In this document: piece after piece, positions 3,752-48,249 of the stretch
Position numbering within the stretch: position 1 is the stretch's first letter
Layout: every line of letters begins with the position of its first letter
Source: Pseudomonadota bacterium
Lineage (GTDB): Bacteria > Myxococcota_A > Polyangia > Polyangiales > DASUME01
NCBI GenBank assembly: GCA_041179425.1
Contig: JBEGTL010000003.1
Coordinates: forward strand, 1 to 48,250
DNA length: 48,250 nucleotides
Direction: 5' to 3'
Translations under genes and position numbers: made by a program
The notes under the pieces: model-generated
What the model saw: the letters and a program-made list of their open reading frames with translations, nothing else
Told to the model about the DNA's origin: nothing
Databases searched by the model: none

Positions 3752-3878
3752 GGTCCAGCGATCGAAGAACGGATGTCCCGAGTGTGAAGAGCAGATCGCA
3801 CGAGCGTCAACCAGCGAGCCGTACAATCGTCCGCCCACGGGGCACTCCGGCTAGCGCTTGTGGGCCATCGGCCTCGCT

Positions 3879-5407: not shown

Positions 5408-5526
5408 TGAGGAGGGGCAACTTACTGCGAGCGCGCCGCGTAAGTAAAGCGCCCCCACCCACACGGCCCCGTGTGCGAACCAACGCCAACGCAGAGCGTC
5501 ACGACGCGCGACGTGTGTCGTCTACG

Positions 5527-7256: not shown

Positions 7257-7411
7257 CGGAGACCTCCGGCACGCAGAAAAGCGCGGCCGGGCCCCGTTAT
7301 AGTGCAACGAAGGACCGGTGCCGCACGCGCCCAGATCTGCCTTGCGTAGGAGACGCAGTTACCACAAGAGACCCGCGTCTCCTATGGTAGACGAGGCAGA
7401 CAAGAGGAGAG

Positions 7412-8859: not shown

Positions 8860-11800
8860 AACTGATCCGTGAACCAGCGGAGCATGGGCTCATCGGCCGG
8901 CCCGGGCCCGAGCTGGGCCGCACGGTGCGCCGCAACCGCCGCGTAGCCACGCATCCCGAGCGACGCAAAGCCGCGCTTGGCGCGTTGGTAGGCCTGTTCG
9001 GCCAACGTCGTCTGACCGGCACGCATCGCGAGTCCGGCGCGCAGCAGGACCGCACACGTCTGTGCAACGGGCAGGTCGTGACGTTCGAGACGTGCGGCAA
9101 ACTTCTCTGCGGCACGAACGTGACGGTCGTTTGGTTCGCGCGCGTTCGCGAGCTCCACCGAGCCCCACAGCAGGCTGAGCGAGGTCGACCACATCTGCGT
9201 GCGCGCGAGGCCCGAACGGACAAAGCGCGGCGCCTCTGCCCGCATCAAGGCGTGCGCAGCCTGCGCGTCGCCTTGGTAGAGTAGCCGGTTGCACTCGCCC
9301 CAGACGGCGATGCCGTAGATGGGCGAGAGCCTGGGTGCACGCCACTCGGCGAGCGCAGCGTGCGTGTAGCGGCGCATCGCTTCCCCATCGCCAGCCACGA
9401 GCGCGGCCCACGCGAGCGCGCTCTGTAGCTGCGCGAGCACCGTGCGGTTGCCCAGCTCGCGCGCCTCTCGCTCCGCTTCTGCGCCGAACGCAGCGATGCG
9501 GCAAAAGTCACCCGCGAGCACGCACACCGAAGCTTCGAGCGAGCTCACCTAGCCGAGCAACCAACGCGCGTCCAGATGCTGGTCGACAGTCAGCGAACGG
9601 ATCGTGCCAACGGTCCGCAGTGCCTCACCACACTGACAGCGCCCAAAGGCGATCAGGGCTTTGCTGGCAAGTGCCGCCACGTGCGCCAGTGGATCGCTGG
9701 TTGTCAACGCCAAGGAGCGCCGCACGAGCGCATCTTGTTCGGCGATCGATGTTAGGCCGAGGTAGGCGTGGACAAACGCCAGCGAGGCGAGCGCGCGGCC
9801 ACGCTGCGCTGCGGAGCCGTGCTGCAGCGCACGCGCAGCGCTCCAGAGGATCAACGCTGCACCCTTCGGGTCGTGCAGACAGATGAGATGTCCGGCCCGG
9901 AACGCAAGCTCCGTTCTTGGATCGTCGGCTGCCTCAGAGCCGGCATCGACCGACTGACTCGCTCGGTGGCTGCGCGCGAGGCTGACGCCCCCTACCCAGA
10001 GGGCGTGCAGCACGCTGGCCGGAACAGGAACGCGGGCCTTGCGCATCGCGGGTCGGAGCAGACGCATGCCTTCTTGTTCGGCCCCTCGCTGCAGAAAGAT
10101 CTCGGCAGCGCGCAGCCGTAGCTCCCAGCTGTCCGCAGGCTTGGCCGCGGCGGCCTCGAGGTAGAGCGGGCCCGCGCGCGTAAGGTCACCCGCTGCGGCT
10201 GCCACGTCCGCGAGCTTCTCGACCAGACCGACCGGGCGACGCGGCGCGGCGCACGCGAGGGCACGTCGATACAGCTCACTCGCGCGGCCCAGGGCCATGG
10301 TTGCACGAGCGCGATCGCCCGCCCGCTCCGCGTGGTCCCCGGCCTCCAGCCACGCACCGGCACAAAAGTAGTGGTGGGCAAAAAACTCTGAATCGTCGAG
10401 CGAAAGCACGTGTGCCGCGCGCACTAGCCGCGCGTGCAGACCGCGTCGCGCCGTTGCATCGAGCTTTTGCTGCACGAGCTCTCGCACCCGGTCGTGGTGC
10501 GGCACGAGGTAGGTCGTGTCGTCGCGCAGGATGGTTCGCACCAGGCGCCGAGCACGCAGAGACGCTAGACAGAGACGCACTTCTGCGGCGTGTTGCGCTG
10601 CAGTGCTGAGTAGCTCGAGGCTGACCGGACGACCCGCGAGCACGACGAGCATCAGCAGCTCGCGCGCGGACTCGTCCAACGTGTCGACCACCTGTGTCAT
10701 CAGCTCCGCGTAGCTTCGCGCTTGGTCGCCTGGCGCACGCTCCGTGTGGAGCAGCGCCAAGAGGAGGAGGGGACTGCCACCAGACTCGCGCAGCAGTCCG
10801 TCCGCCCACGTGCGGTCGAGCTCGCCGCGTCGCGTCGCGCTGGCCAGTCGGTAACAAACCTCTGCGTCGAGTGGGCCGAGGATGATCTCGGTGGGCGCGT
10901 GTGCCGCCGACGCGAGCGCCTCGACGCCGGGTCCCTCGGCGTCGCTACGAAAGCTGGCCAACAACAGCATGGCGGGCGGCCCGTCTGAGACGAGCAGCGA
11001 AAGCAGCGCTGCCCCGTCTGCGTCGGCCCACTGCAAGTCGTCGAGGAAGACGACCAGCGGACGCTCTCGTGCAATCGCGGCCAGCAGACCAAACAGCTGC
11101 TCGAACGCGCGGCGCCGCACCTGACGCGGCGTCGAGGCGCCGTCTCGTACAACGGCCGGGCTCAGCCCCGATTGTCGTAGGCGTGGAAACACCTGGAGCA
11201 GCGCCTCGGTCTCGGTGCCAGCGAGCGCGGCCCGCACGTCCTCGGAGAGACTCCCAAAAAAACGAGCCAGATCCTCGATCAGACCATCGACGCCTCGATA
11301 GGGGAGACACTCTGTCGCGTAACATCGGCCGCGTAGCGTGAGCGCGGTGGCGAGCTCTGGCAGCGCCAAAAAGGACTCGACCAGCGCCGTCTTGCCGATG
11401 CCTGCGTCGCCGCTGACCGTACACACCACGGGGCGCCCGCGAGCACAGGCCAATGCGCCTCTCATCCGCTCGAGCTCTTGCTCTCGCCCGGTAAAACGCA
11501 GCTCTTCAGCCGACCAATCAGGGAGACGTTGTTGAGGCGTGGCGCCCAACACGTCGAAGATTGCCGACGCACCACAACGCTCGCTCGGCACGTCTGCCCG
11601 CAGGCGGAGAGAGAGGCGGCAGAGACCTTCGAGCAACGCGCGTGCCGTCTCGTGCTTGGGCGTGGACACGGCCCGGAGTAGCTCTTGCAGCACTGCGCCT
11701 ACCGCGTACCAATCTGCCGCGTGCGTAGGCGCCTCCCCACGAAGGCGCTCGGGGGCGAGATAGGCAGGCGTCCCGGACTCGCCGCCGTGCGGAATGTCGC

Positions 11801-12401
11801 GCAGCACGCGTGCGACGCCGAAGTCGACGACCACCAACCGACCGCCACGTGCCACGAGGAGATTGGAAGGCTTGAGGTCGCCGTGCAAGACGCCTCGTCG
11901 GTGCAGCGTCGACAGCGCCGACGTCAGCTGCAGCAAACAGCGGACGACAAAGCGGACGCTCAGCGCGTGCCGTGCTGCGAGCAGCAACGAAAGCGACGGG
12001 CCGCGGATCAACTCCATCGTGAAGAAGGGAATCTCCCGCTCCACGTGAAGCTCGTCCATGGTGACCAGGTGCGGATGGCTGAGATCGCACAGCGCCCGAA
12101 ACTCGCGCTGCAGCCGCGTCAGCGCTTGCTCGGAGGCGTCTTCGATGATCTTCAGTGCGACGACGCCACGCGTGGTGGTGTCGATCGCCTCGAAGACCGT
12201 CCCCATCCCGCCACTGCCGATGCGGCCTACGACATCGAAGCGGCCCAGACGCACGGACACCTGCCCCGTCTGCTGGAGCACGCGAGCGAGCAGACGTCTT
12301 CGTGCGAGCTCTACCTCGGGGTCAAAACGATGCGGGTGCCCCTGGGGTGCCGTTGCGAAGAAGACAGCCAGCGGGTCTCGACCACCACGGTTCACGCGCA
12401 C
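8829..12401 (-). pseudogene. Ser/Thr protein kinase-AAA ATPase-helical repeat fusion, interrupted by an in-frame TAG at 9549-9551
   Basis: IGSGGMGTV, ALK, HGDLKPSN, DFG, GTPAYLAPE; Walker A GDAGIGKT, Walker B FLDDLQWAD; ORFs 9549-12401 and 8829-9548 are the same frame separated by a single TAG. Confidence 0.85.
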
Positions 12402-30747: not shown

Positions 30748-31279
30748 CTTCTCGCTCCTCCGCCAGTTCCGCCGCGAGGCACTCAAGGCCACCTTCGACC
30801 GGATCGGTCGTGCACCCGCGGCTCACCGGGTCAGGCCGAGCGTATCTCTCCGAGCGGAAGCCAATCCTTTCGCCTTTCCATCTTCGTTTTGCGATTTTCA
30901 CGAGCAATTCAAGGGCACTGCGTTCTTCCGCCCCGCGTGCGCGAGGTAGCTCGCAAACGCGCTCGAGCCACGAGCACGGAAGGGGGTGCCTGACCTGGAC
31001 CGCTCCGGGGCTTGTCTACTATCAAAGACAGCGCTACGGAGGCGAGGCGTGACCATTCGTGCTGCCGTGGCGGCCGTCGGCGTCACGGCGAACGTCCAGC
31101 ACAGGCCATTTCTCATTTCACACGCGCTCGCAACAACGCGATCGCCACCTGCCCGTACCGCATCGTCGAAGGCCCGCACAGCGACACGCTTCGATGCCGC
31201 GCTCAAAACAGCCCACGAAACAACGTATTGGTGTAAGACCGCGGCAGCGTTACGTAGCAGTGTGCGATTGAGGAGAACT

Positions 31280-32494
31280 ATGACGATCAAGGGCCTGAGT
31301 GACTACGTGCTGTTCAAGGATCCAAAGCTTGCGGCTCGGTACACGAACAAGAAGATTCCGATCTCGACCCTGTTCGAAGCCTACTTCGACGGCGCAGTCG
31401 ACTTTCGCGGTGACATCTTCGACATGCTCGCGCACCGCCACAACTTCGTGAGTCACGACTTCACGCCCGAGAATGTCCGCTACTTCGTCACCAAGTTCTT
31501 ACCCGAGACGCTCGTCCATACCCAAAAGGACGACACCAAGCTGGTGCGCAGCCACTACGACCGCGGCGACGACTTCTTCGCCGCATTCCTCGGCCCGCGC
31601 ATGGTCTACACCTCCGGCTTCTTCAAGGATGCGAGCCAGAGCCTCGAGCAAGGTCAAGATCAAAAGCTTGACCTTGTCTGCCGCAAGCTGGCGCTCAAGC
31701 CCGGCGAGACGTTGCTCGACGTCGGTTGCGGCTGGGGCACGCTGGTGATGCACGCGGCCAAGCACTACGGGGTGAAGGCTACCGGGGTCACCCTCAGTGA
31801 GAACCAGGCCGCCTACGCCAACGCGCGCATTCGCGAAGCCGGCCTGGAGGGCAAGGCTGAAGTGCTGTGCCTCGACTATCGTGCGATCCCCGCCGGGAGC
31901 TTCGACAAGATCGTCTCGCTCGAGATGGTCGAGCACGTCGGCGTCAAAAACCTCAAGACCTTCTACACCAAGATCCGCGAGCTCTTGGTAGACGAGGGCG
32001 TGTTCTTGCTGCAGTGGACGGGCCTACGTCGCGCAGCCCATCAAGAAGACCTCGTGTGGGGTCTATTCATGGCCAAGTACATCTTCCCGGGTGCCGACGC
32101 GAGCTTGCCCGTGGCCGACATGATCTCCGCCTGCGAGAAGGCCAACTGGGAGATCAACACCATCGAAAACATCAGCATCCACTACTGCTACACCATCAAG
32201 AAGTGGCATCAAAACTGGGCGCGCAACAAAGACGTCATCCTGTCTGCGTACGGCGAGCGTTGGTACCGCATCTGGAACTTCTTCTTGGCTTGGGCAGTCA
32301 CGGCGGGCACCCAAGGAACGGCCGCCTGCTTCCAGGTGGTCATGAACAAGAACCTCAACGAGTACGACCGCGCCCGCTGGGTCACCGGTGCGGCCCCGCT
32401 GAGCGAGCGCCTGTCCGCTCCCGCGCACCATGCGCCCGGCCGCAACAACAATAACAACAACACGACGATCAACGCCGAGAGCGCGACCCCCTGA
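31280..32494 (+). CDS. Cyclopropane-fatty-acyl-phospholipid synthase family methyltransferase, sphingolipid C9-methyltransferase-like
   Basis: HYDRGDDFF..FLGPRMVYTSG, LLDVGCGWG, SLEMVEHVG, KYIFPG; N-terminal KIPISTLFEAYFDGAVDFRGD; RBS GAGGAG. Confidence 0.9.
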   Translation: MTIKGLSDYVLFKDPKLAARYTNKKIPISTLFEAYFDGAVDFRGDIFDMLAHRHNFVSHDFTPENVRYFVTKFLPETLVHTQKDDTKLVRSHYDRGDDFFAAFLGPRMVYTSGFFKDASQSLEQGQDQKLDLVCRKLALKPGETLLDVGCGWGTLVMHAAKHYGVKATGVTLSENQAAYANARIREAGLEGKAEVLCLDYRAIPAGSFDKIVSLEMVEHVGVKNLKTFYTKIRELLVDEGVFLLQWTGLRRAAHQEDLVWGLFMAKYIFPGADASLPVADMISACEKANWEINTIENISIHYCYTIKKWHQNWARNKDVILSAYGERWYRIWNFFLAWAVTAGTQGTAACFQVVMNKNLNEYDRARWVTGAAPLSERLSAPAHHAPGRNNNNNNTTINAESATP

Positions 32495-32524
32495 GGGGCG
32501 CCTCGCCGAGTCGAGCGCAGCGGT

Positions 32525-33499
32525 TCAGCGCACCAGACCGCGCTCCGTGTACGCGGCAAGTGTCTTGCGCGACGCACGGCGCTGCAGCAGGAGCGCGACC
32601 AACGCAACCGCGTTGAACAGCGTGAGGCGCAAGACCATGTAGGGCAGCAGCATGTCGAGCATGCCCGCAATCGCGAACAAGTAAGAGTGCGGCGCGAGCG
32701 AGATGCTGATCCAGAGCCGCATCGGCGCCGCATTGTGCTGGCGATACAGCTCCGAGGCCTCGGCATCTACGCTCCAGCGAGCTTTCAGCAAGCGCGCGCC
32801 CCATGGATTGGTGCGCTCGGTAAAGCGCTCTTGTTTGCCCAGGTAGTCTTCGTAGAAGGCCATCGCGAAGCGCGTGTACCAGGCGGCGGAGTTGACCAGC
32901 GACGTCTTGTTCAGCTCGCTGATCTCCTCGACGCTGTGGCTCTCGCCGCCCGCGCCGAGGCGCGTCGCCCGCAAAAACAGCTCTTTGTAGGCGTCGTACA
33001 AGTTGAAGTGGAAGACTGCGCAGACCACGCCGACGATGCCTGCGAACAGAATCACCGGCAGCTCGAATCGGCCTTGTTGCGACATGTGCCAGACCGCGGC
33101 GAGGCTGCTGGTAAAACCGACCACCATGTCGGCGACGCCGTCGAGCGCGCGACCAAATGCCGAGCTCATCTTTTTGGCGCGCGCCAAGATGCCGTCGGCG
33201 CCGTCCATGATCGCGCTGATCCAGAGCAGCGCCCCGCCCACCAGCATCGCGCGCGGGCTGCCCCAGACCCAACAGCCCGCGGCCGTCAGACCGAGGCTCA
33301 TGGCCAGGAACGTGACCTGGTTGGGCGTGATGGAGGTGCGGTACACCGCGCGCACGAACGCGTAGGCGAGCGGCCGATGCACCCAGAGGTTGATTGGGTC
33401 TTCTACTTCGCGCGACTTCAGGACCGACGCAAAAGAAGGCGGCGCGGCCACGGATGGCGCCTGGTCCGAGTTCGGAGAAACCCCGTTCACGTAGCTCAC
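32525..33499 (-). CDS. CDP-alcohol phosphatidyltransferase family protein
   Basis: ITPNQVT and signature DGADGILARAKKMSSAFGRALDGVAD; TM helices. Confidence 0.92.
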   Translation of the reverse strand: MSYVNGVSPNSDQAPSVAAPPSFASVLKSREVEDPINLWVHRPLAYAFVRAVYRTSITPNQVTFLAMSLGLTAAGCWVWGSPRAMLVGGALLWISAIMDGADGILARAKKMSSAFGRALDGVADMVVGFTSSLAAVWHMSQQGRFELPVILFAGIVGVVCAVFHFNLYDAYKELFLRATRLGAGGESHSVEEISELNKTSLVNSAAWYTRFAMAFYEDYLGKQERFTERTNPWGARLLKARWSVDAEASELYRQHNAAPMRLWISISLAPHSYLFAIAGMLDMLLPYMVLRLTLFNAVALVALLLQRRASRKTLAAYTERGLVR

Positions 33500-33503
33500 C
33501 TCT

Positions 33504-34475
33504 TCACGATGCGGTGGGGTCGAGAGTCTCCGCGCCGAGGTCGAGCAGCGTGGCCTTGGGCTCAGGCAGCCACGACTCGTCCGGGCCCTCGGTCGGCAGC
33601 ACCACCGGCGTGCCGTCGTAGCGGAGCCGCTGATTCAAAAAAAAGGTGGTCCACAAGTACGCGAGCAGCGACGGGCAGTCGAGCGCTGGATGAATGTGGC
33701 CCGCATAGCGCGCAGCGTGTGCGGCCGGCAGCTTGCTCCAGTGCAGGCCAGGGATGTCGTGATGGATGCCGTGAAAGCCGTTGTTGAACGCGAGCCAGTT
33801 GACCGCGCGGCCGACGAAATTGCGCGAGTGGTTGTACTCGCTGTCGGCGTCGCAGCCGTCGTGCTGCAGCAGGTTGATGGTGACGATTCCCCACTGCGCG
33901 TAGAGATGCGGCAGCAGCCAGAACAACAGGGCGCGCTTCCAGTCGAGCACGAACAACGCGACCTGAATGCTCAGCAGCACCGCGAGCTCGGTGATGCCTT
34001 GCCGAAACCAGCGCGGGTGGCGCTTGCGCATGACCCAAATGTACTCGGAGTCCGCGCGCATGATGCCTGGCGCGACCGAGAGCATGAAGAACAGCCCGTT
34101 GAGCAGGTGCCAACGAAAGCGCGTCTTGGTGGTGCGCATGACGTCGCGGCGCGACTGCGTGAAGCGGTGGTGGCTCAGGTTGTGCCCGGGCACGTAGGCG
34201 CTGACCGGGTGCCCGTACACGCAGGTGAGGACGACCTGGTAGACCTTGTTGAGCCAACGCTGCTTGAACACCGGGCTGTGAATGGCGTTGTGCGTCTGCA
34301 CGGCGCCCTGAAAGGCCGTCACACAGAGCAGCACGAGCGGCGGCAGCGCCCACAGGTTGAGTGGCACGTACAGCCATGCGGCCAGCAACGACGCGAAGTA
34401 CACGCCGTTGAAGAACAGGGGTCGGAGGTCGCTGCGGTCTTTGAGGATCACGTGGGGTGCACCAGCTGACGACAC
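33504..34475 (-). CDS. Membrane fatty acid desaturase
   Basis: Three His boxes HNAIH, HNLSHH, HGIHH plus QHDG; TM segments. Confidence 0.9.
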   Translation of the reverse strand: MSSAGAPHVILKDRSDLRPLFFNGVYFASLLAAWLYVPLNLWALPPLVLLCVTAFQGAVQTHNAIHSPVFKQRWLNKVYQVVLTCVYGHPVSAYVPGHNLSHHRFTQSRRDVMRTTKTRFRWHLLNGLFFMLSVAPGIMRADSEYIWVMRKRHPRWFRQGITELAVLLSIQVALFVLDWKRALLFWLLPHLYAQWGIVTINLLQHDGCDADSEYNHSRNFVGRAVNWLAFNNGFHGIHHDIPGLHWSKLPAAHAARYAGHIHPALDCPSLLAYLWTTFFLNQRLRYDGTPVVLPTEGPDESWLPEPKATLLDLGAETLDPTAS

Positions 34476-38759: not shown

Positions 38760-39386
38760 TCAACGCAGCGTGCGCACCGGGCCGAGCTGGACGCCCAAAG
38801 GAGGCGCGATCAGCACCCTCACATGGTCTCCCTCGACCAGCACTTCAGCGCTCTCGATGCCGCGGGCGCGCAGCTGCCGCAAGATCTTATCGCGTAGCTC
38901 GGCGTCGCTCATGCCTGGTTCGCGCAGCTGGTCCAGCGGCAGCGGTGCGAGTTCGACGGGTCCGTTCGCCATCCCTGGTGCGCGGTGGCGGAGCTCGATG
39001 TGGTGGCCGGCCGTGTCGTCGGCGCTGAGCTCGATGCGAGTCTCTTGCTTCGTGCGTTCTACCGAGACTTCGTTCGGGGTCCAGCCTTGATCGCCGAGCT
39101 GCTGACGGATCTCGCCTGCGGCTTGGTGGTCGGTCTTGCCAGCCAGCTCGACGACCACGCGGAACACGGCATCGCGGGCGACCGCGTAGACCTTACTCCA
39201 GCCAACGCCGGTGCAGAACACAAGCACCGCGAACGCGAACACGGTGGCCAGCGCAGTCCGAGCTCGTGCACGAGGTTGACCTCGCGCGTGCAGTAGCTGC
39301 CTCGTGTGTGCGAGCGAAGGCATGGCGTCTGCGGTCTCCGCAGCCAGCCGTCGATGGTCCGAAGCGATCAGCAATTCGATGTTCAT
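38760..39386 (-). CDS. Putative membrane anti-sigma factor
   Basis: ATGA-coupled to the ECF sigma, RBS AGGAGGAG, short N-terminal region, one TM helix, extracytoplasmic tail. Confidence 0.65.
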   Translation of the reverse strand: MNIELLIASDHRRLAAETADAMPSLAHTRQLLHARGQPRARARTALATVFAFAVLVFCTGVGWSKVYAVARDAVFRVVVELAGKTDHQAAGEIRQQLGDQGWTPNEVSVERTKQETRIELSADDTAGHHIELRHRAPGMANGPVELAPLPLDQLREPGMSDAELRDKILRQLRARGIESAEVLVEGDHVRVLIAPPLGVQLGPVRTLR

Positions 39387-39919
39387 GGCAGCTCCTCCTT
39401 CAGTGCGAGCGGTCCCCGTGCGGCCGCATCCCTCAGGTAGCGGGCTCGCAATCGAGCGCGCGCACGCACAACGCGTGACTTGATCGCCGCCAGCGAGTCG
39501 CCCTGCAGCGCGGCGATCTCGTCGAGGCGAAACTCGGACAGGTCGGACAGCACCAGCGCTTCGCGTTCCTTCGCGTTCAGCGTCGCCAGCGCGCGGGCCA
39601 TACGCTGCGCGCCCTCGTCCGCAAACGCGGGCTCCACCGCGGGTTCCGCGACCTGATCCAACGGAAGCAGCCGACGCCAAAAGTCGCGCCGGTGGCGCTG
39701 CCGGTGCAGACGCAGCAGGATCGCGAAGAACCAGGAGCGGAAGCGCGCCTCCTCGCGCAACGTGCCCAGCCGGTCGAACGCGCGCAAGACGGCGTCTTGA
39801 AACAGGTCGTCGCCATCCGCGCGGCTCCGCGACAGGCGCCGCGCAGTCAGCACCGCCTGGTGGTGCAAGGGTTCGAGCAGCCTCAGCAGCCGCTCACTCG
39901 TTTGTTCATCCGTGTCCAT
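39383..39919 (-). CDS. ECF RNA polymerase sigma factor
   Basis: Region 2 DDLFQDAVLRAF...FRSWFFAI; region 4 EREALVL...LDEIAAL...IKSRVVRARARL. Confidence 0.92.
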   Translation of the reverse strand: MDTDEQTSERLLRLLEPLHHQAVLTARRLSRSRADGDDLFQDAVLRAFDRLGTLREEARFRSWFFAILLRLHRQRHRRDFWRRLLPLDQVAEPAVEPAFADEGAQRMARALATLNAKEREALVLSDLSEFRLDEIAALQGDSLAAIKSRVVRARARLRARYLRDAAARGPLALKEELP

Positions 39920-40119: not shown

Positions 40120-40258
40120 CTCGCTCGACCACCACTGCAGACTCTTCGCCGAGTAATCTTGCGTCTCGCAGAACTCCTTCAGCTCAAGACCACTCGCTTG
40201 CCATGCCTCGACACGTGCCGCCCACTCTGATGGAGATGCTGGGGCCGAGCTATCCACC
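40108..40258 (-). mobile_element. IS66-family TnpA-like N-terminal fragment
   Basis: EWAARVEAWQASGLELKEFCETQDYSAKSLQWW fits the IS66 TnpA HTH pattern; ends in the CTAG repeat; no tnpB/tnpC or terminal repeats seen. Confidence 0.65.
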
Positions 40259-41953
40259 CGAACCTGCGTGGGGGACTCGTGTCGAGCTGAGCGCACCCGC
40301 AAGGTAGTCATCGCGCAGCGCGATGCGTCGGATCTTGCCGCTCGTCGTGCGTGTGATCGTTCGCGGACGCACGATCACTACTTCTTGGAGCGGTAGCCGA
40401 AAGACGCTGAGCACCGCGACGCGGATGCGCGCCGAGAGCTCCGCCACGCGGTCCGACCGCCGCCAGTCGCGCGACTCTGCAACTACTACGACCTCTTCCG
40501 TGCCGGTCTGGGAATCGTGGTAGCCAAACGCTGCGTTGAGCAGAAGCTCTGGAATGTGGCTCCGCACGCAGTGCTCGACGTCGGTGGGGGAGAAGGCCTC
40601 GCCGCCCCGCTTTACCATCTCCTTGACGCGGCCCACGATGAACAGCTCGCCGGCATGCACGACTCCCAGGTCGCCAGTTCTCAGGGGATCGGGCAGTCCG
40701 ATCAGCTCCCCGTCGCTGCGCAGTGACGCGCGAGCGCTTGCATCGCCGCTGATCGCGACCTCGCCGACTTCGTTCTCGCCGAGCGTCCGCCCGTCCTCGT
40801 CCAAGACGACGAAGCGAGTGCCAGCGACGGCAAACCCATTGCCTGCGCGCGAAACCGTCTCGTCGGAGCTCGCCTCTCGCAGTGCGACACGCCCGTTTCG
40901 TAGCTCGGCGCGATCGAAGTTGCGGACCAGTCGCGGGGTCCCGGGCGGCCGCACGGCCACTGCCACGCAGTTCTCCGCCAGGCCGTAGCCAGGCTGGATC
41001 ACGTGCTTCCGGAGGCCATACGCGGCGAAGAACCGCTCGAAGGCATCGCATGCAGCCGCATCGACGATCTCCGCGCCGTTGATGCTGGTGCGCAGCGCCG
41101 ACAGGTCGAAACCTGCGCACGGCGCGGCGGAGAGTCTCGCCTTGGCCAGCACGAGGTCGTAGGCGAACTGCGGTGCCATGCTGATCGTCGAGCGCTGTGT
41201 GCTCATCTGTCTGAGCCAGCCGATCGGATCCATGATGAACGCCTGCGGCGTCCCGAGCGTCAGGCCGGCGCCGACGCGCAGCGAGGTGAGCACGGCAGCC
41301 ACCAGACCCATGTCGTGAAAAAGCGGGAGCCACGAGTAGACACGGTCTTGGGCCGTCCAGTCGATGCCGAGACAGAATCCGCGGGCGTTGGCGCTCAGCT
41401 GCTCGTGACGCAGACACAGGCCCTTCGGCTCGGCCGTGCTGCCTGCGGAGAACTGGATGATTGCAGCTCGCCCCTCGGGCATTTGACAGCGGTCAGCGGC
41501 CGGGTCGAGACCACTGGGCTGGTGACTCGTCTCGAGAGCGAGCACGCGGGTGCTCGTGGCAGCCTCGGCAGCGGCACGCTCGTGGCATTCGAACTCACTG
41601 CGATGCGTCAGCAAGTAAGGTGCGCGGCTGGCGCGTAGGATGGAGACGATTCGCTCGAAGTCTTTGCCCACGGCGCGCAGGTCTGGCCTGTAATAGAGAG
41701 GGAGGACCGTGCCGCCTGCATGCAGGACGCCCAGCGTCGAGATCACGCAATCGAGCGTGTTAGACATCGAGATGGCCGCGCGCTGACCGCAGGTAAACCC
41801 GTCGGCCCTCAGGGCCTCCGACTTCTGCACGACCAGGCTCCAGAGCGCGCGATAGCTCAAGGTAGGAGCGTCGCGTCCCAGCTTGAGTTCCGCGGGATTG
41901 TCGCGCACCGCGTGCTCGCGAATCGCTTCGAGAAAGTGAGCTGGCTCAGACAT
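40250..41953 (-). CDS. Fatty acyl-AMP ligase (FAAL)
   Basis: QFSAGSTAEPKG, SWLPLFHDMGLV, NGAE, PGYGLAE, RTGDLG, RTTSGKIRR. Confidence 0.9.
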   Translation of the reverse strand: MSEPAHFLEAIREHAVRDNPAELKLGRDAPTLSYRALWSLVVQKSEALRADGFTCGQRAAISMSNTLDCVISTLGVLHAGGTVLPLYYRPDLRAVGKDFERIVSILRASRAPYLLTHRSEFECHERAAAEAATSTRVLALETSHQPSGLDPAADRCQMPEGRAAIIQFSAGSTAEPKGLCLRHEQLSANARGFCLGIDWTAQDRVYSWLPLFHDMGLVAAVLTSLRVGAGLTLGTPQAFIMDPIGWLRQMSTQRSTISMAPQFAYDLVLAKARLSAAPCAGFDLSALRTSINGAEIVDAAACDAFERFFAAYGLRKHVIQPGYGLAENCVAVAVRPPGTPRLVRNFDRAELRNGRVALREASSDETVSRAGNGFAVAGTRFVVLDEDGRTLGENEVGEVAISGDASARASLRSDGELIGLPDPLRTGDLGVVHAGELFIVGRVKEMVKRGGEAFSPTDVEHCVRSHIPELLLNAAFGYHDSQTGTEEVVVVAESRDWRRSDRVAELSARIRVAVLSVFRLPLQEVVIVRPRTITRTTSGKIRRIALRDDYLAGALSSTRVPHAGSGG

Positions 41954-44177
41954 CTCGGCCCCAGACTCCCATGCGGATTCGTGGCAGCAAGCTTGCCGCG
42001 TAGGTGTCGCGCATCATTTCCGAAGTTCCGGCGAACACCGAGAAGATGCGCGAGTCACGCAACGCACGTGTGACGTGCACGGTGGTCTCCGTGGAGACTG
42101 GCAGACACTCCAGAGCGTCGGCGGCCACTTCGATCGCTCGCTGCGCTGTCTCGCAAGCGGCATACTTGAGCATTGCTGCGTCGGTGCGTTCGAGCTCGCC
42201 GCGCGTCGTTTTCTCGATGACGTGGTAGGCGAGGGCCCGTCTACCCTCGACCCGCGCCAGCTCGCCGAGCAGCCTGGGCGTGTGTGCGCTGGCGAGCTCG
42301 GGCGCTCGTTCGAGCACGCGCAGCACGCGGAGCAAGCAGCTGCTCGCCAGCTCGAGGGAGCCGGCGGCGATCAGCACGCGCTCGTGGAGCGTGGCATCGG
42401 CAAAGTAGCTCAGGCCGAGCCCGGCGCGTCCGATGAGGTTGTGCTTGGGAACGCGCACGCTGCGGAAGTCGAGCGTGCCGGTGGGCGAGCCGCGCAGGCC
42501 GAGCTTGTCGTACGGAGCCGAAGCAGTCACACCTGGCGCGTCCGAGGGCACCAACAACAGGCAAGCTTGAAACGGCTGGCCGTCCGCACTCGAGCGAGCG
42601 AGCACCAGAGCGAAGTCCGCGACCGGCGCGTTGGTGATGAAGACCTTTCGGCCATCGACGACATAGTCGGAGCCGTCCTCGTGGGCGACCGTCTGCATGG
42701 CGCCGGTGAGATCGGAGCCACCACCGGGCTCCGTGATTCCAAAGGCGATCACTGCGGAGCCAGACAGGATGCGCGGCAGAAGATGCTCACGGAGCAGCGG
42801 CGTTCCGTGGTTGGCAACGAGCGAAAAGACCGCTCCGGCCGCCACCAACAGGCTGACGGCCGCACTGGCCGACGCCTTCGACATGAGCTCCTCGATCAGC
42901 GCAACGCTGTAGCTGAGGTCGCGGCCCGGCCCGCCGTGCTCGAGCGGCACCATCGAGGTGGTCAGTTGCTCGCGCGCGAAGCGCTGGTGCACGTGTCGAA
43001 AGTCAGACAGGCTTTCTTGCTCGCCGGCGCTCGCCCGCGGCAGCGCGGTCGCTATCACCCGGCGCGCCCGCGCACGGAAGTCCACGTGCTCCGGAGTCGC
43101 AAACGAGCAGCTTCCTCGCGGCAGACCGGCCTCGGGAAGCAAGCCGCCGAGCTGTCGCTCGATCTCCGCGCACAGAATGTGCTTGCTCCCGAACAGACGA
43201 CAGAGGCTGCGGCAGTCGCGGTACGCGCGGGCTGCGTCATGCTCGCTCAAGAAGCCGCGCCCGCCGTGGAGCTGCTGGCAGTCTTTGACGAACTCGGGAA
43301 GCGAGTCATGCACGTTGGCGCACAGCATCAGCACACGCAGCGCTCGTCCCGGCGAATCCACGGCGGCGGCACGCAGCTGTGACTCGAGTGTTGTTTGGCA
43401 CGAGCAGAGGTCCGCGATGCGATGGCGTATGACCTGCTGTGTCGCGAGCACACTGCCGCGGAATGGTCTCGATCCGAGAAAGTCGAAGGTCGCAGCGAGT
43501 AGCTGCCGCGACCAGGCGATCAGAGCATGAGCAGCGCGAAGGCGGTGCTGCTCGGTCAACGAAGCTAGTGCTACCGGGTCGAGGTACGCGCTCTGCGAGG
43601 GCGCTATCAGCACGCGATCGAACGCGATCGAGCAAAGCCCGGCAGCGCCGAGGCCCATGTCCAGCCCTGGACGCCGAGATACTCCCTGCGCATCAAGCGG
43701 TACCTGACACAGCTCGGTCGCCGAGACACGCAAGAGCAGAGTAGAAACATGGGCGCCAGAAACGACTCCATGGACGGTTCCGGTGAGCTGCCTCGTGCCA
43801 TTTGCAGACAGACTGACGGCCAGGTCCGAGGCGAGCTCGAACCACGGTGCGGGTAGCGTGGTCAGGGCCGAGCGCAGTCCGCTCGCTCGCTGAAGCTCGC
43901 GGGCGGCGCGCAGGGTCGCGAGCGCGACAACCGCACCCAGCGATCGGCCTCCGTCCAGCGAGGAGAGCAGCTGGGCAGCCGGGGTGGCGGGCTCGACCGA
44001 CTCACCCGCGCACTCGAGCTCGGACCAGACGTCAGTCGGCAGCGCGCCGTGAGCCTCCCAGTGCTCCACATCGTACCTGGGCGGCTCCGCGAGCTCGATG
44101 CGGCGAGTGTCCACCGTCCGAGTGTCCACCGTCAGGAGCGCGCTGGGCTCCGCGCTGGCTGCTGGCGACGCACTCAT
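41946..44177 (-). CDS. Tandem (two-domain) acyl-CoA/acyl-ACP dehydrogenase
   Basis: Degenerate N-terminal unit (RPFRG..QVIRHRIAD, QLHGGRGF..E, RAYRD) and canonical C-terminal unit (FGITEPGGGSD, GRKVFITNA, KLGLRGSPT, ERV, RDSRIFSVFAGTSE); ATGA overlap with the ACP. Confidence 0.88.
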   Translation of the reverse strand: MSASPAASAEPSALLTVDTRTVDTRRIELAEPPRYDVEHWEAHGALPTDVWSELECAGESVEPATPAAQLLSSLDGGRSLGAVVALATLRAARELQRASGLRSALTTLPAPWFELASDLAVSLSANGTRQLTGTVHGVVSGAHVSTLLLRVSATELCQVPLDAQGVSRRPGLDMGLGAAGLCSIAFDRVLIAPSQSAYLDPVALASLTEQHRLRAAHALIAWSRQLLAATFDFLGSRPFRGSVLATQQVIRHRIADLCSCQTTLESQLRAAAVDSPGRALRVLMLCANVHDSLPEFVKDCQQLHGGRGFLSEHDAARAYRDCRSLCRLFGSKHILCAEIERQLGGLLPEAGLPRGSCSFATPEHVDFRARARRVIATALPRASAGEQESLSDFRHVHQRFAREQLTTSMVPLEHGGPGRDLSYSVALIEELMSKASASAAVSLLVAAGAVFSLVANHGTPLLREHLLPRILSGSAVIAFGITEPGGGSDLTGAMQTVAHEDGSDYVVDGRKVFITNAPVADFALVLARSSADGQPFQACLLLVPSDAPGVTASAPYDKLGLRGSPTGTLDFRSVRVPKHNLIGRAGLGLSYFADATLHERVLIAAGSLELASSCLLRVLRVLERAPELASAHTPRLLGELARVEGRRALAYHVIEKTTRGELERTDAAMLKYAACETAQRAIEVAADALECLPVSTETTVHVTRALRDSRIFSVFAGTSEMMRDTYAASLLPRIRMGVWGRDV

Positions 44178-44437
44178 TGGCCACATCGTGTGCGCTCCAA
44201 GAGTCCGACCAGCAGCGCGACGAATTCGCGCAGGGTGGTGTCACGCGTGAACGGCTGTTCGGACTGCGTGAGGTCTAGCCGCACCCCGAAGTGCTTCTCG
44301 ACGCCAAGCACGACCTCGGCAGAGCTGAGCGAATCTAGCCCGAGCTCGTCCAGCTTGAAGTCGTCGCTGAGAAAGTCCGCCGGGACGCGCAGCTTGGTGG
44401 CGATCACCGTTTTAATGGTCTGAGTGTTGTCGTTCAT
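44174..44437 (-). CDS. Stand-alone acyl carrier protein
   Basis: ELGLDSL phosphopantetheine motif, EKHFGV; RBS GGAG. Confidence 0.92.
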   Translation of the reverse strand: MNDNTQTIKTVIATKLRVPADFLSDDFKLDELGLDSLSSAEVVLGVEKHFGVRLDLTQSEQPFTRDTTLREFVALLVGLLERTRCGQ

Positions 44438-44453
44438 GATTGACTCCAGGGAG

Positions 44454-45608
44454 CTAAGCTAGATCCGGGTTGATCTCGAAGATCGGGAAGTAAGTGTCCA
44501 GAGCGTTGCTGGTGAAGCGACGCGCGAGGTCGGGGATGTCATGCCAGTGCCAGGTGGGCTGGCCGCAGGGCGGCATCCAGTCAGAGCCTGCCATGTAGTC
44601 ACAGGCCTCGACGGCCACCGAGTGACGAACGCCATGTGTGTGGACGAAGGAGTGGCGGTTCATGCACGCCTCGATTCGACTGGTCACCATCGTACCACCC
44701 TGATCCCAGCCCGAGCTGGTGACCACGCCCTGACGGCCGAGCGCACGCAGGGTGGCGCGCAGCACCGGCGCGCCAACGTTGTCGATGAAAATTCCAACCC
44801 TACCCTCGCCCGTGTGCTCGCGAACGGCGCGCAGGAATACTCCCTCACTGCGCATGTAGCGAAGACTGTAGCTCGGGTCACTCGCGAACCGCGCGGCGTC
44901 GAAGCACAGGTCCGGAAAGTTGCGACGATCCACCGGCGCAATCCCGGCTGCCGCGATCTGTGCCAGGCGTGCATCGGTCGATGCGATCATCGCGACCCGA
45001 CAGCCGAAGCTCGCCGCGAGCTGCAGCTCAGCGAGAGAGACTCCGCCGCCCCAGCCCCAGACCCAGGGCTTGGGATCGTCGGCCACGGACATCTGCGCCC
45101 GATAGCATGCGATCGCTACCTTCCAGTTGTCGTAGGCAGTCAGATAGCGAATCGAGATTGCCGCCCACTGCGCAAGCGAGTGCCGTGACGGCTGCGGGAT
45201 GCGATACAGCTGCTCGCGCTTGAGCTTGGTGCGCTTGGCAAGCATGCCGACGCTCCCACGCGCGTCGTATCCGAACACCCGGGTCAAAAAGCCATGCGCG
45301 TCCGACGAGCCGACCGGGATCAGTGCGCACGCGTCGCCCTCGCGCAGGTCCTGCACATGGGAGCCTACTTCGAGTACACGCACGACACCGGCATTGCCGA
45401 GCACGACGGTAGCTTCCATGCGCAGACGACAGATGTCGACGGGCTTGCGTCGCAGCGCGTGCGACATGTTTCCCTCCCAGCATCCGTAGATCGGCGCGGC
45501 GAGGATCTCATCGGGCTGCAGGTCGGAAAGCTCGAGCGTCTCGAGCTGGAGCTCGGCCTCGCGGTCGTCATCGAGAGGATGGATGACCCAAGCTTCAGTG
45601 CGAATCAT
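44454..45608 (-). CDS. Medium-chain dehydrogenase/reductase, distantly crotonyl-CoA carboxylase/reductase-like
   Basis: GroES-like GVVRVLEVGSHV..LREGD, TAY, VWGWGGGVS nucleotide-binding loop, IDNVG; no GHE zinc motif; start MIRTE at 45608 with GGAGG. Confidence 0.75.
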   Translation of the reverse strand: MIRTEAWVIHPLDDDREAELQLETLELSDLQPDEILAAPIYGCWEGNMSHALRRKPVDICRLRMEATVVLGNAGVVRVLEVGSHVQDLREGDACALIPVGSSDAHGFLTRVFGYDARGSVGMLAKRTKLKREQLYRIPQPSRHSLAQWAAISIRYLTAYDNWKVAIACYRAQMSVADDPKPWVWGWGGGVSLAELQLAASFGCRVAMIASTDARLAQIAAAGIAPVDRRNFPDLCFDAARFASDPSYSLRYMRSEGVFLRAVREHTGEGRVGIFIDNVGAPVLRATLRALGRQGVVTSSGWDQGGTMVTSRIEACMNRHSFVHTHGVRHSVAVEACDYMAGSDWMPPCGQPTWHWHDIPDLARRFTSNALDTYFPIFEINPDLA

Positions 45609-48249
45609 CTGCGGCCTCCATGGTGGTGCGCCCTCTTGGCCCATCCGTCGCCGCGCTCATCGCATGTTCGCGGTCAGGCGTGAGCACGCGCCGGAGCACG
45701 TCCGCCACGAGCTCCGGCTCGGAGTGCACGAAGTAGTGGCCACGGTCTAGGAAAGTCACGCTCCGAGAGTCTCGAAAGTAGCGCTGCCAGTGCGAGACAC
45801 GCTGCTCCCAGCCTGCTGTGAGAGGGTCTGCGGAACCGAACAGGCAGACTAGCGGGGTCGCCAGTGGCCGGGGAGCAGCTAGCTCGCGAAAGTGCTCGAA
45901 GAGCTCACCGAGCCGCACGCCATCCTCGTGCATGTTGGCGGCGGCTTCGAGTGCGTCGGCCTCGGTGGCGATCTCAGGCAGTCCGCCGAGTGACCTCATG
46001 AAAGTCGCAAGGTCCCCCCCGCCCGCCATGGTGCCGAGCGCCGCGTCGGAGATGGTGACGCCCTCGAGCGGTGGCAGGAACGCTGCCGCAAACACGCATG
46101 CCGCAGGACGCCCCTCCAGTTCGAGCCGCCGCGCGAGCTCCACAGCCACCGACGAGCCTCCACAATGCCCGTAGATGTAGAGCGGGCTCTGGACGTGCAT
46201 CAGCTCGGCGAGGACTTTCTCGAGCATGCGTTCGCGCTCACGCACGTTGCGCAGCGGAGGCACGACCAGCACCTCGAAGTCCTCCGGTAGCTCGGCAGCC
46301 AGCGGCTTGAATGCGAGCTCGGTCCCGCCAGCGTAAGGCACGCAAACCAAGGTATGTCTCGCCGTCGCAGGAGACTTGAGGGCGAACATCTCGACACCTT
46401 CGTCGCTTGCGTCGACGAGCTTCACGAACCGCTCGATCGACGGGCTGCCGAGCAGCGACTTGACAGTCGTACGGAGTCCAAGCCGATCGCGGCACAGTTG
46501 AACCAGTCGCATAGCAAGCAGCGAGTCTCCACCAAGCTCGAAGAAGTCATCGCGTACGCCGATCGGGGAGACGCCCAGCAACTCTTCCCAGATCTCAACC
46601 AGCTGGCTCTCGACGGGCAGCTGCGGCCCACGGTACGCGCTGGTCAGGTCAGGACGCGTGGTCTTTTCCCGTCGCGTCGCGAGGCTCTTTTCGAAGCGGG
46701 TGACGTGCCGCTCGATCGGCAGTGCGCACGCGACTACATTCGGCACGGCACGAAGGGCAAGCGCACGCTCGAAGATCACGAGCAAGTCGCGACCGCGCAG
46801 CACACCCTCGGACAGTAGACGCTGTAGAGCGCCCTTGCGCTCGCGCGGGTCGGCGCGCCCGTCCTCGGCCGCCTGCGGACGGTAGTAGTCAAGGGCGACG
46901 CTGACCCAGCGTGTCCCGTGCTCGCCGTCGAAGCGATGAGCCATCACGTCCAGTGCGCGATTGGACGACGCGTAGCCGAAGTTGCCGAGCCCGCCGAACT
47001 CCGATGAGACCGACGACGCCAGACAGCAGAAGCCCACGGCGTGGCGCGCGGTGAGCGCGGCCAGCACCTGTGCACCGCGGAGCTTGGGGCCAGAGTTCGC
47101 GTCCGCAGTGCTGGGCGTCGCATCGTGCAGCATGCCGAAGGTCCGCTCCTCGAAGGTGGCCGCGAGGTGAAAGACGCCATCGACCGCGCCCCAGGTGTCC
47201 TCGAGCCGCGCGAACAACGCAGACATCTGCTCCGAACAGCTGACGTCGGCGCGCACTAGCTCGAGCTCAGCACCGCGCTCCTCCAGCTTGAGCAGCGTAC
47301 TGACGATTTGCGCGATGCTGGCCACCTCGGCGGTGTCCGACGCGAGCTCGCCAAAGCGCGCTCTGGGCGGAAGCTCGGTTCTGTGGACGAGCGCAACGCG
47401 CGCTCCGTATTCGCTCACCAAGTGCTCAGCGAGCGACAGACCCATACGCCCGAGCCCACCTGTGATCACGTAGCGCCCTTTCGAACGCAGAGCCGCCGGC
47501 TCGGCCGCCGGTGCGATGCGCCGATACTCTCGCTGCCAACGTCGGCCGTGCCGGAAGGCGACGGGCTGGAAGTCAGCCTCGCGCGCGAGTTCGTCCGCGA
47601 TGGCCGCGGCGCTTCGAGCGGCTGCGAGCGGGCAGTCCGAGCGATCTACGTCGAGCCAGCGCGCACGCAAGTTGGGCAGCTCGCGCGGCAACACCAGAAC
47701 CGCAGTCGCGGTGCAGGCGAGGTCCGCTGCGATGCGTTCCACGCCCAGCACGGGCTGCGCGTGCGCGGTGATGTACACCCACTCGATCGCGGCCTGACAA
47801 CCGGAGCCGGTGAGGCCTTGCGCCAGCGCCGCGGGCTCCGCCAGCACTCCGTCAAGCGCCTGCGCAGGCTCGTTCGCGCGGCTACCGGCCTGACAGCGAA
47901 GCAGCGTCACCGGGCCCGAAGAGACCGCGGCCAGCCTGCGAAACAAGGCTTCGATGTGATCGTTTCGAGTCGGGTCGAGCGAGCTCTCGGTGGGCTCGCG
48001 ATCGGCGCTGCGAACACAGCGCAGCTCGAGCAACTGCACGTCCTCGCGCCGGGCAAGCGCGGCTAGCTCACGGCACAGATCACACCCATCCGAGAGCAGA
48101 GCCCAGGACCTGTGGCCCTCGCGCGGCAAGCTCGCGGGCAGCGGGCTCTGCACCCAGGTCGGCCGATAGAGGTAAGGTCCGTGCGCAACGGGCTCTGTCT
48201 GCGCCCGAGGCAGCTCGGGCACGACAGCGTCCCTGCGCGTAGACCCGTC
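45595..48249 (-). CDS. Type I PKS terminal module, partial: KR-ACP-TE
   Basis: LYRPTW KR start, ITGGLGRMG, PK, SS, YASSN; carrier FFELGGDSL; TE PYAGG, GHCGG, GHYF; frame open to the window end. Confidence 0.93.
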   Translation of the reverse strand, partial: DGSTRRDAVVPELPRAQTEPVAHGPYLYRPTWVQSPLPASLPREGHRSWALLSDGCDLCRELAALARREDVQLLELRCVRSADREPTESSLDPTRNDHIEALFRRLAAVSSGPVTLLRCQAGSRANEPAQALDGVLAEPAALAQGLTGSGCQAAIEWVYITAHAQPVLGVERIAADLACTATAVLVLPRELPNLRARWLDVDRSDCPLAAARSAAAIADELAREADFQPVAFRHGRRWQREYRRIAPAAEPAALRSKGRYVITGGLGRMGLSLAEHLVSEYGARVALVHRTELPPRARFGELASDTAEVASIAQIVSTLLKLEERGAELELVRADVSCSEQMSALFARLEDTWGAVDGVFHLAATFEERTFGMLHDATPSTADANSGPKLRGAQVLAALTARHAVGFCCLASSVSSEFGGLGNFGYASSNRALDVMAHRFDGEHGTRWVSVALDYYRPQAAEDGRADPRERKGALQRLLSEGVLRGRDLLVIFERALALRAVPNVVACALPIERHVTRFEKSLATRREKTTRPDLTSAYRGPQLPVESQLVEIWEELLGVSPIGVRDDFFELGGDSLLAMRLVQLCRDRLGLRTTVKSLLGSPSIERFVKLVDASDEGVEMFALKSPATARHTLVCVPYAGGTELAFKPLAAELPEDFEVLVVPPLRNVRERERMLEKVLAELMHVQSPLYIYGHCGGSSVAVELARRLELEGRPAACVFAAAFLPPLEGVTISDAALGTMAGGGDLATFMRSLGGLPEIATEADALEAAANMHEDGVRLGELFEHFRELAAPRPLATPLVCLFGSADPLTAGWEQRVSHWQRYFRDSRSVTFLDRGHYFVHSEPELVADVLRRVLTPDREHAMSAATDGPRGRTTMEAADDSH

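Follow-up and report, generated by a model that had tools for sequence, protein, structure and literature searches.

What would an operon make in which the end of a polyketide synthase (PKS) is directly followed by genes for oxidising and activating fatty acids? Such an operon occupies one end of contig JBEGTL010000003.1 from a Polyangiales draft genome (GenBank assembly GCA_041179425.1), the whole 48,250 nt of which was analysed and is referred to here as the window. Open reading frames together with Pfam and NCBIfam matches place five minus-strand genes across positions 40250-48249, in the order PKS end (ketoreductase, acyl carrier protein and thioesterase domains, KR-ACP-TE), medium-chain dehydrogenase/reductase (MDR), free-standing ACP, fused double acyl-CoA dehydrogenase (ACAD) and fatty acyl-AMP ligase (FAAL), and this bears out an initial annotation that had described them as co-oriented and overlapping or tightly spaced. 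Our answer, to which we assign a probability of roughly 45% from comparisons of sequences and predicted structures, is that the operon would convert a fatty acid into an alkylmalonyl extender, use that extender to build a 2-alkyl-3-hydroxyacyl chain, and release the chain as a beta-lactone.

Because the window takes in contig C3 whole (the draft genome, 8.4 Mb in 833 contigs, is 89.85% complete and 6.5% contaminated) and its end falls inside the PKS gene, that gene is truncated at its 5' end. What remains (45595..48249, 884 aa, open at the 5' end; Pfam, NCBIfam and translation) encodes a KR-prefix region (47932-48171), a KR (46891-47478), an ACP (46414-46605) and a TE (45700-46353). It overlaps the MDR gene (44454..45644, 396 aa) by 14 or 50 nt, the likely MDR start being the ATG at 45608 as judged from the ortholog in the soil contig introduced below. 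After a gap of 16 nt comes the ACP gene (44174..44437, 87 aa; PF00550, E = 7.8e-11), whose product has a predicted phosphopantetheine attachment site at Ser36 within a DSL motif (44330-44332). The ACP gene overlaps that of the fused ACAD-type flavoprotein (41946..44186, 746 aa) by 13 nt, and the latter overlaps the FAAL gene (40250..41953, 567 aa) by 8 nt.

The arrangement is more than chance, since the same gene order and the same cysteine-type TE recur in a contig from a soil metagenome (L035) and in one (L032) from a Thermoanaerobaculia metagenome-assembled genome (MAG). L032 reads ..KR-ACP-TE > MDR > ACP > double ACAD > FAAL; L035 reads nonribosomal peptide synthetase (NRPS) > PKS > MDR > ACP > double ACAD > FAAL, its PKS being complete, with ketosynthase (KS) and acyltransferase (AT) domains in the order KS-AT-KR-ACP-TE. 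The ACP orthologs occupy the same position in both, and the source given for one of the full-length PKS relatives described below (P0209) is a Polyangiales MAG. The double ACAD has only six full-length relatives among 5.8 billion protein clusters, 33-54% identical to it; none of full length was found among the listed matches from 40 related genomes, nine of which are of the same genus. It follows that the cassette is rare and conserved as a unit, though patchily distributed; its gene content, gene order, enzyme families, catalytic residues and synteny are matters of direct observation. Two further loci were considered and set aside as not belonging to it: L036, which has a single ACAD, and L084, which has a different double ACAD with both halves intact. 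No characterised cluster in the literature searched matches the combination, which the initial annotation had likewise failed to recognise; neither the five-gene set nor a PKS with a TE of this type was described in open-licence PMC full text and bioRxiv, the only sources covered, so that absence is not proven.

The soil locus adds information on priming. The gene overlapping its PKS start (L035:2-3229) encodes heterocyclisation, adenylation and peptidyl carrier protein domains (Cy-A-PCP), with EpoB, BmdB, HMWP2 and PchE as best Protein Data Bank (PDB) matches. Because this Cy-A-PCP protein is encoded directly upstream of the PKS, the L035 version of the pathway would be primed by a thiazoline- or oxazoline-forming NRPS step.

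Central to the proposed pathway is the identity of the MDR. It belongs to a small family, with 191 relatives at E <= 0.001 in a HMMER scan of 1.84 billion representatives. When a profile of 33 members was compared with the PDB, the top 10 matches (E = 1.3e-26 to 2.4e-15) were all crotonyl-CoA carboxylase/reductases (CCR) or enoyl-CoA carboxylase/reductases (ECR), namely 4gi2, 3hzz, 3krt, KsCcr (6na3, 6na4 and 6owe), 9kva, AntE in two forms, and CinF; other MDRs gave partial matches only, at E >= 9e-12. The AF2 model (pLDDT 94.9) agrees with this: of fold-search ranks 1-15, the 12 entries shown are without exception ECRs, with query-normalised TM scores (TMq) of 0.74-0.80, although generic MDR alcohol dehydrogenases follow by a small margin at 0.70-0.73. 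The CO2 pocket of KsCcr consists of N81, F170, E171 and H365 (PMC6628652), and these residues align with N59, Y126, D127 and H337 of the MDR, of which N59 and D127 are invariant in the 33 family members. Tyr occurs at position 170 in some ECRs, and the F170Y variant carboxylates fully (PMC6628652). The papers drawn on in this analysis are PMC6668435, PMC11513958, 10.1101/736256, PMC4207774, PMC12843615, PMC6628652, PMC9413435 and PMC6164871.

Relatives of the MDR in other lineages point the same way. Profile searches found the family in 113 of the 401 genomes of the phylum. Members of the closest tier, to which the window protein belongs (E ~1e-165), adjoin genes for an N-terminally extended ACAD, a fused B12-dependent mutase, a lyase of HpcH/CitE type and an enoyl-CoA hydratase; those of a second tier adjoin genes for a mesaconyl-CoA hydratase, a lyase, a pair resembling succinyl-CoA ligase, or a CoA transferase of family III (contexts L127-L131, from G065, G240, G186, G073 and G220, and L133-L138). 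The ethylmalonyl-CoA pathway comprises Ccr, Ecm, Mcd, Mch and Mcl. These neighbour sets, with their Mcd-like ACAD and Ecm-like mutase, resemble it, and because the relatives sit in them, the family very probably consists of genuine, though divergent, reductive carboxylases. In other lineages of the phylum this clade probably represents a version of the ethylmalonyl-CoA-pathway carboxylase that has gone unrecognised; the curated NCBIfam CCR model misses it, scoring 49-74 bits (74 for a second-tier relative) against a cut-off of 378. The CCR-like character first proposed for the window protein is therefore upheld by profile and fold matches, CO2-pocket residues and the gene sets of its relatives, rather than giving way to a generic reductase, and we regard it as highly likely that the MDR is a reductive carboxylase.

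Within this family the cassette enzymes stand apart at one position. The residue after the catalytic His is Gly (G338 in the window) in all three cassette MDRs, whereas it is Tyr in the five relatives from ethylmalonyl-type contexts, Tyr or Phe in the six of the second tier, and Phe in the four canonical CCRs aligned. This is presumably also the position of the Phe that limits the acyl pocket and of Gly362 in CinF and Val350 in AntE. A bulky Phe limits the pocket of the Streptomyces coelicolor CCR, and a small residue is found there in long-chain enzymes (PMC11513958). A quick tree places the three cassette MDRs in one group, nested in the family (SH-aLRT 89). Because they form one clade and carry Gly at this position, we read them as a pathway carboxylase that would have been recruited once into the cassette and whose acyl pocket would then have been widened. 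The MDR-ACAD pair was not simply copied from an ethylmalonyl-type pathway, since the window ACAD shares only 26% identity with the ACAD beside an ethylmalonyl-context MDR. The window genome has a single copy of the family, that of the operon. In one other genome, a second divergent-ECR copy (L132, G171:C28, 255-10688) has retained Tyr at the position after the catalytic His, and nearby are a PKS of KS-AT-ACP-TE type and a large Ser/Thr kinase that also has GAF and cyclase domains.

The TE suggests how the chain could leave the PKS. Its predicted nucleophile is the Cys of a GHCGG motif (residue 696 of the fragment, codon 46162-46164), and its best PDB match by a wide interval is ObiF1 (6n8e; E = 2.8e-24, 89 bits), to which it is about one third identical; the next match, a type II thioesterase, scores 44 bits. 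ObiF1 is a beta-lactone-forming NRPS TE, for which the motif GXCXG was defined, its triad is Cys1146/Asp1254/His1284, and the Cys is required for lactone formation in ObiF (PMC6668435). With an index offset of 20 residues allowed for, the phmmer alignment maps this triad onto Cys696, Asp808 (45826-45828) and His838 (45736-45738), which are thus the presumed triad of the window TE. The domain has the PF00975 fold according to Pfam; GHCGG is present in the window, L035, L032 and all five full-length relatives, and the Cys nucleophile and RifR-like triad are kept in 7/7 PKSs of the family. Among 40 proteins with a TE of this type, 37 are NRPSs ending in condensation, adenylation, PCP and TE domains (C-A-PCP-TE) and the other three are PKSs of this family. 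Here the TE follows the KR-ACP of a PKS, so the NRPS module context of ObiF, with its N-acyl-alpha-amino-beta-hydroxyacyl-PCP substrate, is absent. The Cys-TE noticed in the initial annotation is accordingly a real one, specifically ObiF-like with an aligned triad, and this gives the idea of a beta-lactone a concrete basis; taking release by itself, we would put the chance that it yields a beta-lactone at about even.

For the missing part of the PKS we depend on its relatives. Five full-length KS-AT-KR-ACP-TE proteins (P0169, which is that of L035, P0170, P0171, P0209 and P0210; 1709-1776 aa, 780-886 bits, from the 5.8 billion clusters) are 48-53% identical to the fragment over ~850 aa, and the next match falls to 367 bits. 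All five are single-module enzymes that start directly with the KS. When P0169-P0171 are compared with one another, identity is 82-85% in the KS, 69-73% in the AT and 51-61% in KR-ACP-TE, and the window fragment is 48-52% identical to these three in KR-ACP-TE. The window KS should therefore show ~80% identity to the family, and tblastn with the family N-terminus found nothing in the 833-contig assembly better than contig C695. The assembly holds one modular KS only, that of C695, and two further AT matches. We conclude that the window KS-AT is simply not assembled: it lies outside the window, as had been stated at the outset, the contig ending within the gene and no matching KS-AT occurring elsewhere in the assembly.

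Two other contigs of the genome carry assembly-line genes. C695 (L011) encodes a PF00756 esterase followed by a PKS start, a KS and the beginning of an AT that run off the contig. It was first favoured as the missing N-terminus, its KS being 51% identical to that of L035 compared with 42% for an unrelated PKS, and was then rejected: its KS is 50-53% identical to the family, as against 82-85% among true members, and its AT begins with a canonical motif. C568 (L013), a second assembly-line fragment (AT-ACP-C-A-PCP-TE, with HAFH in the AT and a Ser-TE), is a separate system and not part of the window PKS. The two do not belong to one gene either, for the same AT segment is covered by different sequences in each, and no contig ends overlap.

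The AT domains of all five full-length relatives carry GHSSGE, the conserved Arg, and GAAH at the position where YASH or HAFH is otherwise found. The conserved Arg of such domains binds the free carboxylate. The AT specificity check suggested in the initial annotation thus gave a motif that is not that of malonyl or methylmalonyl enzymes, although it could be read on the relatives only, the AT of the window being absent. ZmaA-AT, an enzyme that accepts hydroxymalonyl from an ACP, has this GAAH motif (PMC4207774). The motif argues against malonyl- or methylmalonyl-CoA as the predicted substrate and goes no further.

The two remaining enzymes would supply the substrate of the carboxylase. In the double ACAD, all three Pfam ACAD domains fall within residues 364-733, so that the C-terminal half is a complete ACAD, and the N-terminal half is a degenerate one in which only a remnant of the ACAD C-terminal domain is left. 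Profile matches in the PDB include 3oib, 2pg0, the long-chain acyl-CoA dehydrogenase (LCAD) 8w0t and the isovaleryl-CoA dehydrogenase (IVD) 4kto, and the C-terminal half is nearest to a mycobacterial ACAD, LCAD and IVD. Its C-terminal motif FAGTSE is without the Glu; an invariant Glu599 (numbered in the 743-aa form; 602 from the first ATG) stands at what we take to be the site of the catalytic base in IVD and LCAD. Fused or heteromeric ACADs of this kind are found in mycobacterial sterol catabolism. The FAAL, identified by the AMP-binding family PF00501 and PDB matches, has FAALs or adenylation domains as its 17 best PDB matches, led by 7r7f, FadD32, 3kxw, FadD23, 3pbk and FadD28. The FAAL region aligns with 7r7f essentially without gaps, and FAAL families figure among its top NCBIfam matches, although all NCBIfam FAAL models score below their cut-offs (for example 250 against 600). 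The ACP gene lies two genes upstream of it.

From these parts we propose the following pathway. The FAAL would adenylate a medium- or long-chain fatty acid and load it onto the ACP, the ACAD would oxidise the acyl thioester to a trans-2-enoyl thioester, and the ECR, with NADPH and CO2, would carboxylate it reductively to a 2-alkylmalonyl thioester. This unit would be accepted as an extender by the GAAH AT of the PKS and condensed by the KS with a starter chain that differs between loci, after which the KR would give a 2-alkyl-3-hydroxyacyl-ACP. The ObiF-type Cys-TE would then take over the chain as a thioester, and attack by the 3-hydroxyl would free an alpha-alkyl beta-lactone. We take the ECR to carboxylate because an ECR that merely reduced after the ACAD step would be futile, and we take the ACP to be the carrier because the FAAL is the sole activating enzyme, the ACP gene is flanked by those for the MDR and the ACAD at 3/3 loci, and the AT has GAAH. 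The substrates, the tethering to ACP or CoA, the chain length, the starter and the beta-lactone are what we infer in this scheme.

Several findings weigh against it. The AT argument draws on relatives that are 48-53% identical to the fragment in the shared part, the KS and AT of the window itself being missing; in the PDB search with the L035 AT, ZmaA-AT came at rank 9 and showed no special kinship compared with ordinary ATs, and GAAH also occurs in a loading AT that accepts acyl-CoA. The KR motifs of the window did not reveal its stereochemistry. In the MDR, Asp127 replaces Glu171 of KsCcr, which keeps the carboxylate; the Glu171 mutant described for KsCcr is E171A (PMC6628652). The adenine pocket of KsCcr (K296/R303/Y328) was tried as a test of CoA against ACP; it reads G/R/R in the window, is not conserved across the family, and does not discriminate. 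For the TE, the substrate of ObiF is an N-acyl-alpha-amino-beta-hydroxy acid on a PCP, not a polyketide (PMC6668435). Where we place the ACP-bound intermediates, the ACAD and ECR might instead work on CoA thioesters and provide a long alkylmalonyl-CoA, as CinF and AntE do, with the FAAL and ACP doing no more than handing the fatty-acyl starter to the KS, or to the Cy domain in the case of L035; a 2-alkyl-3-hydroxy chain would still result. The nearest MDR relatives of known context lie in CoA-pathway gene sets and presumably use CoA thioesters, the solved structures that match the ACAD best are those of acyl-CoA dehydrogenases, FAAL-ACP pairs are the usual lipid-loading devices, and the L035 Cy-A-PCP needs an acyl donor, which might also be the FAAL-loaded ACP. 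We nevertheless think a CoA route rather unlikely, given the constant position of the ACP gene between the MDR and ACAD genes and an operon that has no acyl-CoA ligase; an AT that receives its substrate from an ACP is known to have GAAH (PMC4207774), and in FK506 biosynthesis ACAD activity on ACP-bound substrates was shown and CCR action on them concluded (10.1101/736256). The hydroxyacyl chain is common to both arrangements. A further arrangement builds on the fact that FAAL, ACP and ACAD make up a known lipid-starter module in mycobactin: here they would produce a 2-enoyl starter, as MbtM/MbtL/MbtN do for mycobactin and LipA/LipB/LipD for friulimicin, and the MDR would be an ordinary Ccr giving ethylmalonyl-CoA only. 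Many PKS clusters have a ccr gene of their own, the MDR relatives resemble pathway Ccr enzymes, and NCBIfam returns weak matches to MbtM (201 bits) and MbtN (75 bits), far below the cut-offs. The Gly that all three cassette MDRs have in place of the Tyr of their ethylmalonyl-context relatives, and the separate clade that they form, argue against an ordinary Ccr, and no MbtK-like N-acyltransferase is encoded in the operon or within 10 kb downstream, so that we hold this arrangement to be improbable.

The remaining doubts concern the carboxylation and the release step. The best NCBIfam match of the MDR is the CCR model TIGR01751, at 49.5 bits against a cut-off of 378.55; the MDR is therefore not a canonical Ccr, and with alcohol dehydrogenases so close behind the ECRs in the fold search it could be a trans-acting enoyl reductase or another reductase that does not carboxylate. 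Since the residues of the CO2 pocket are retained, the PKS relatives lack a dehydratase (DH) domain whose product would need reducing, and reduction would just reverse the ACAD step, we consider this very improbable. As to release, the chain could be the same and the Cys-TE could hydrolyse or transfer it, giving a 2-alkyl-3-hydroxy fatty acid, free or esterified, which would be a mycolate-like lipid and no beta-lactone. Identity to ObiF1 is about one third and the context is that of a PKS; resemblance between TEs does not settle how a chain is released, since the related Cys-TE of SulM is reported to make a beta-lactam; and lipid genes lie nearby (30986-34475). Such an outcome is doubtful rather than improbable: the Cys and RifR-like triad are kept throughout the family PKSs, that Cys is needed by ObiF to form its lactone (PMC6668435), and the KR acting in cis supplies the beta-hydroxyl. 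We favour the beta-lactone pathway.

All parts of the cassette are known kinds of enzyme; the novelty lies in how they are combined, in the occurrence of such a TE within a PKS, and in the divergent clade of ECRs. The initial annotation had implied that a self-contained route on an ACP was itself novel, and it is less unprecedented than that, as the FK506 genes TcsA-D of Streptomyces tsukubaensis provide a published precedent: for TcsD, an ACAD, activity on substrates bound to TcsA was shown, and the CCR TcsC was concluded to carboxylate the TcsA-bound dienoyl (10.1101/736256). As would be the case here, a dedicated carrier bears the extender, an ACAD and a CCR act there, and a specialised AT uses the unit (10.1101/736256). 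The FK506 chain, however, is built by a KS/AT pair and its ACAD desaturates at gamma,delta, whereas in the cassette a pre-formed fatty acid would be loaded by the FAAL, a fused double protein of LCAD/IVD type serves as ACAD, and the ECR comes from the divergent clade. With ObiF and ObiF1 of obafluorin biosynthesis, the TE has in common the PF00975 fold, the GXCXG Cys, the Asp and His positions and the presumed beta-hydroxyacyl thioester substrate, and it differs in ending a PKS module instead of an NRPS C-A-PCP-TE protein that handles an N-acyl-alpha-amino-beta-hydroxy acid, and in sharing only about one third identity.

Other known systems each resemble part of the scheme. In the antimycin (AntD/AntE), cinnabaramide (CinF) and salinosporamide (SalG) pathways an ECR makes an alkylmalonyl extender for the final PKS module, and L035 is further like antimycin in that an NRPS module feeds KS-AT-..-ACP-TE. 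The AntE, CinF and SalG enzymes are canonical ECRs that use CoA, their clusters have no FAAL-ACP-ACAD set, and their TEs have Ser. The mycobactin proteins MbtM (FAAL), MbtL (ACP) and MbtN (acyl-ACP dehydrogenase) are the same three kinds of enzyme encoded as neighbours, and they convert a fatty acid into a 2-enoyl-ACP; in mycobactin biosynthesis, however, there is no ECR step and MbtK moves the enoyl chain to lysine, and all three window matches lie far under the curated cut-offs. Another such system is mycolate assembly by FadD32-Pks13-AccD4, in which a FAAL-activated fatty acid and a 2-carboxyacyl unit are joined by a single-module PKS to give a 2-alkyl-3-oxo or hydroxy acid; there the extender comes from a biotin carboxylase, reduction occurs in trans, and a Ser-TE transfers the product to trehalose. 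The predicted product class, a 2,3-dialkyl beta-lactone with two fatty-acid-derived arms, is that of OleABCD, LstABCD and nocardiolactone, which differ in relying on a head-to-head condensation of the thiolase type, on a separate reductase and on a beta-lactone synthetase that depends on ATP, and no genes of the Ole kind for any of these three functions are present in the operon. Routes to beta-lactones that are listed in the alligamycin paper are OleC-type synthetases, an NRPS TE or esterase, the ketosynthase SalC and the cyclase VibC (PMC11513958); the salinosporamide beta-lactone is made by the KS-like SalC (PMC11513958), and that of hymeglusin is reported to be formed by a KS domain.

Beyond the FAAL gene, 330 nt past its stop and on the same strand, lies a gene for an extracytoplasmic function (ECF)-type sigma factor (39383..39919; Pfam Sigma70_r2 and r4). 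No terminator-like site was found between the two, a promoter and terminator scan around the FAAL end having given nothing above shuffled sequences, and the sigma factor may regulate the operon or be co-transcribed with it. The nearby lipid genes encode a cyclopropane-fatty-acid-synthase-like methyltransferase with an N-terminal extension of ~180 aa (30986-32494, plus strand) and two minus-strand products, namely a CDP-alcohol phosphatidyltransferase (32525-33499) and a fatty-acid desaturase (33504-34475). A steroid-type gene run, likewise minus-strand, covers 2732-7307 and comprises a KshA-like Rieske oxygenase (2732-3838), a 3-oxo-5-alpha-steroid 4-dehydrogenase (5527-6285) and a 3-beta-HSD/epimerase-family protein (6282-7307), which suggests sterol modification. 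The window also encodes a Ser/Thr kinase of 950 aa that carries a fused AAA_16 ATPase domain (9549-12401, minus strand) and a cyanate lyase gene (25600-26118, plus strand).

Beta-lactones are covalent warheads against serine/threonine hydrolases, proteasomes and lipases. If the proposed pathway is correct, it would constitute a polyketide route to 2,3-dialkyl beta-lactones like lipstatin and nocardiolactone, convergent with the logic of OleA-D and with mycolate condensation. It is possible, though we hold it with considerable reserve, that this would be the first assembly-line PKS to close a beta-lactone with an ObiF-type Cys-TE of its own, on a chain whose alpha-alkyl branch was built wholly on a free-standing ACP by a FAAL, a fused double ACAD and an ECR from a clade not recognised before. 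The PKS-embedded TE would then add a portable release domain for engineering, and the FAAL-ACP-ACAD-ECR cassette would turn any free fatty acid into a PKS extender while leaving the CoA pool untouched. The divergent ECR clade, which curated models miss, matters for the annotation of CO2-fixing reductive carboxylases.

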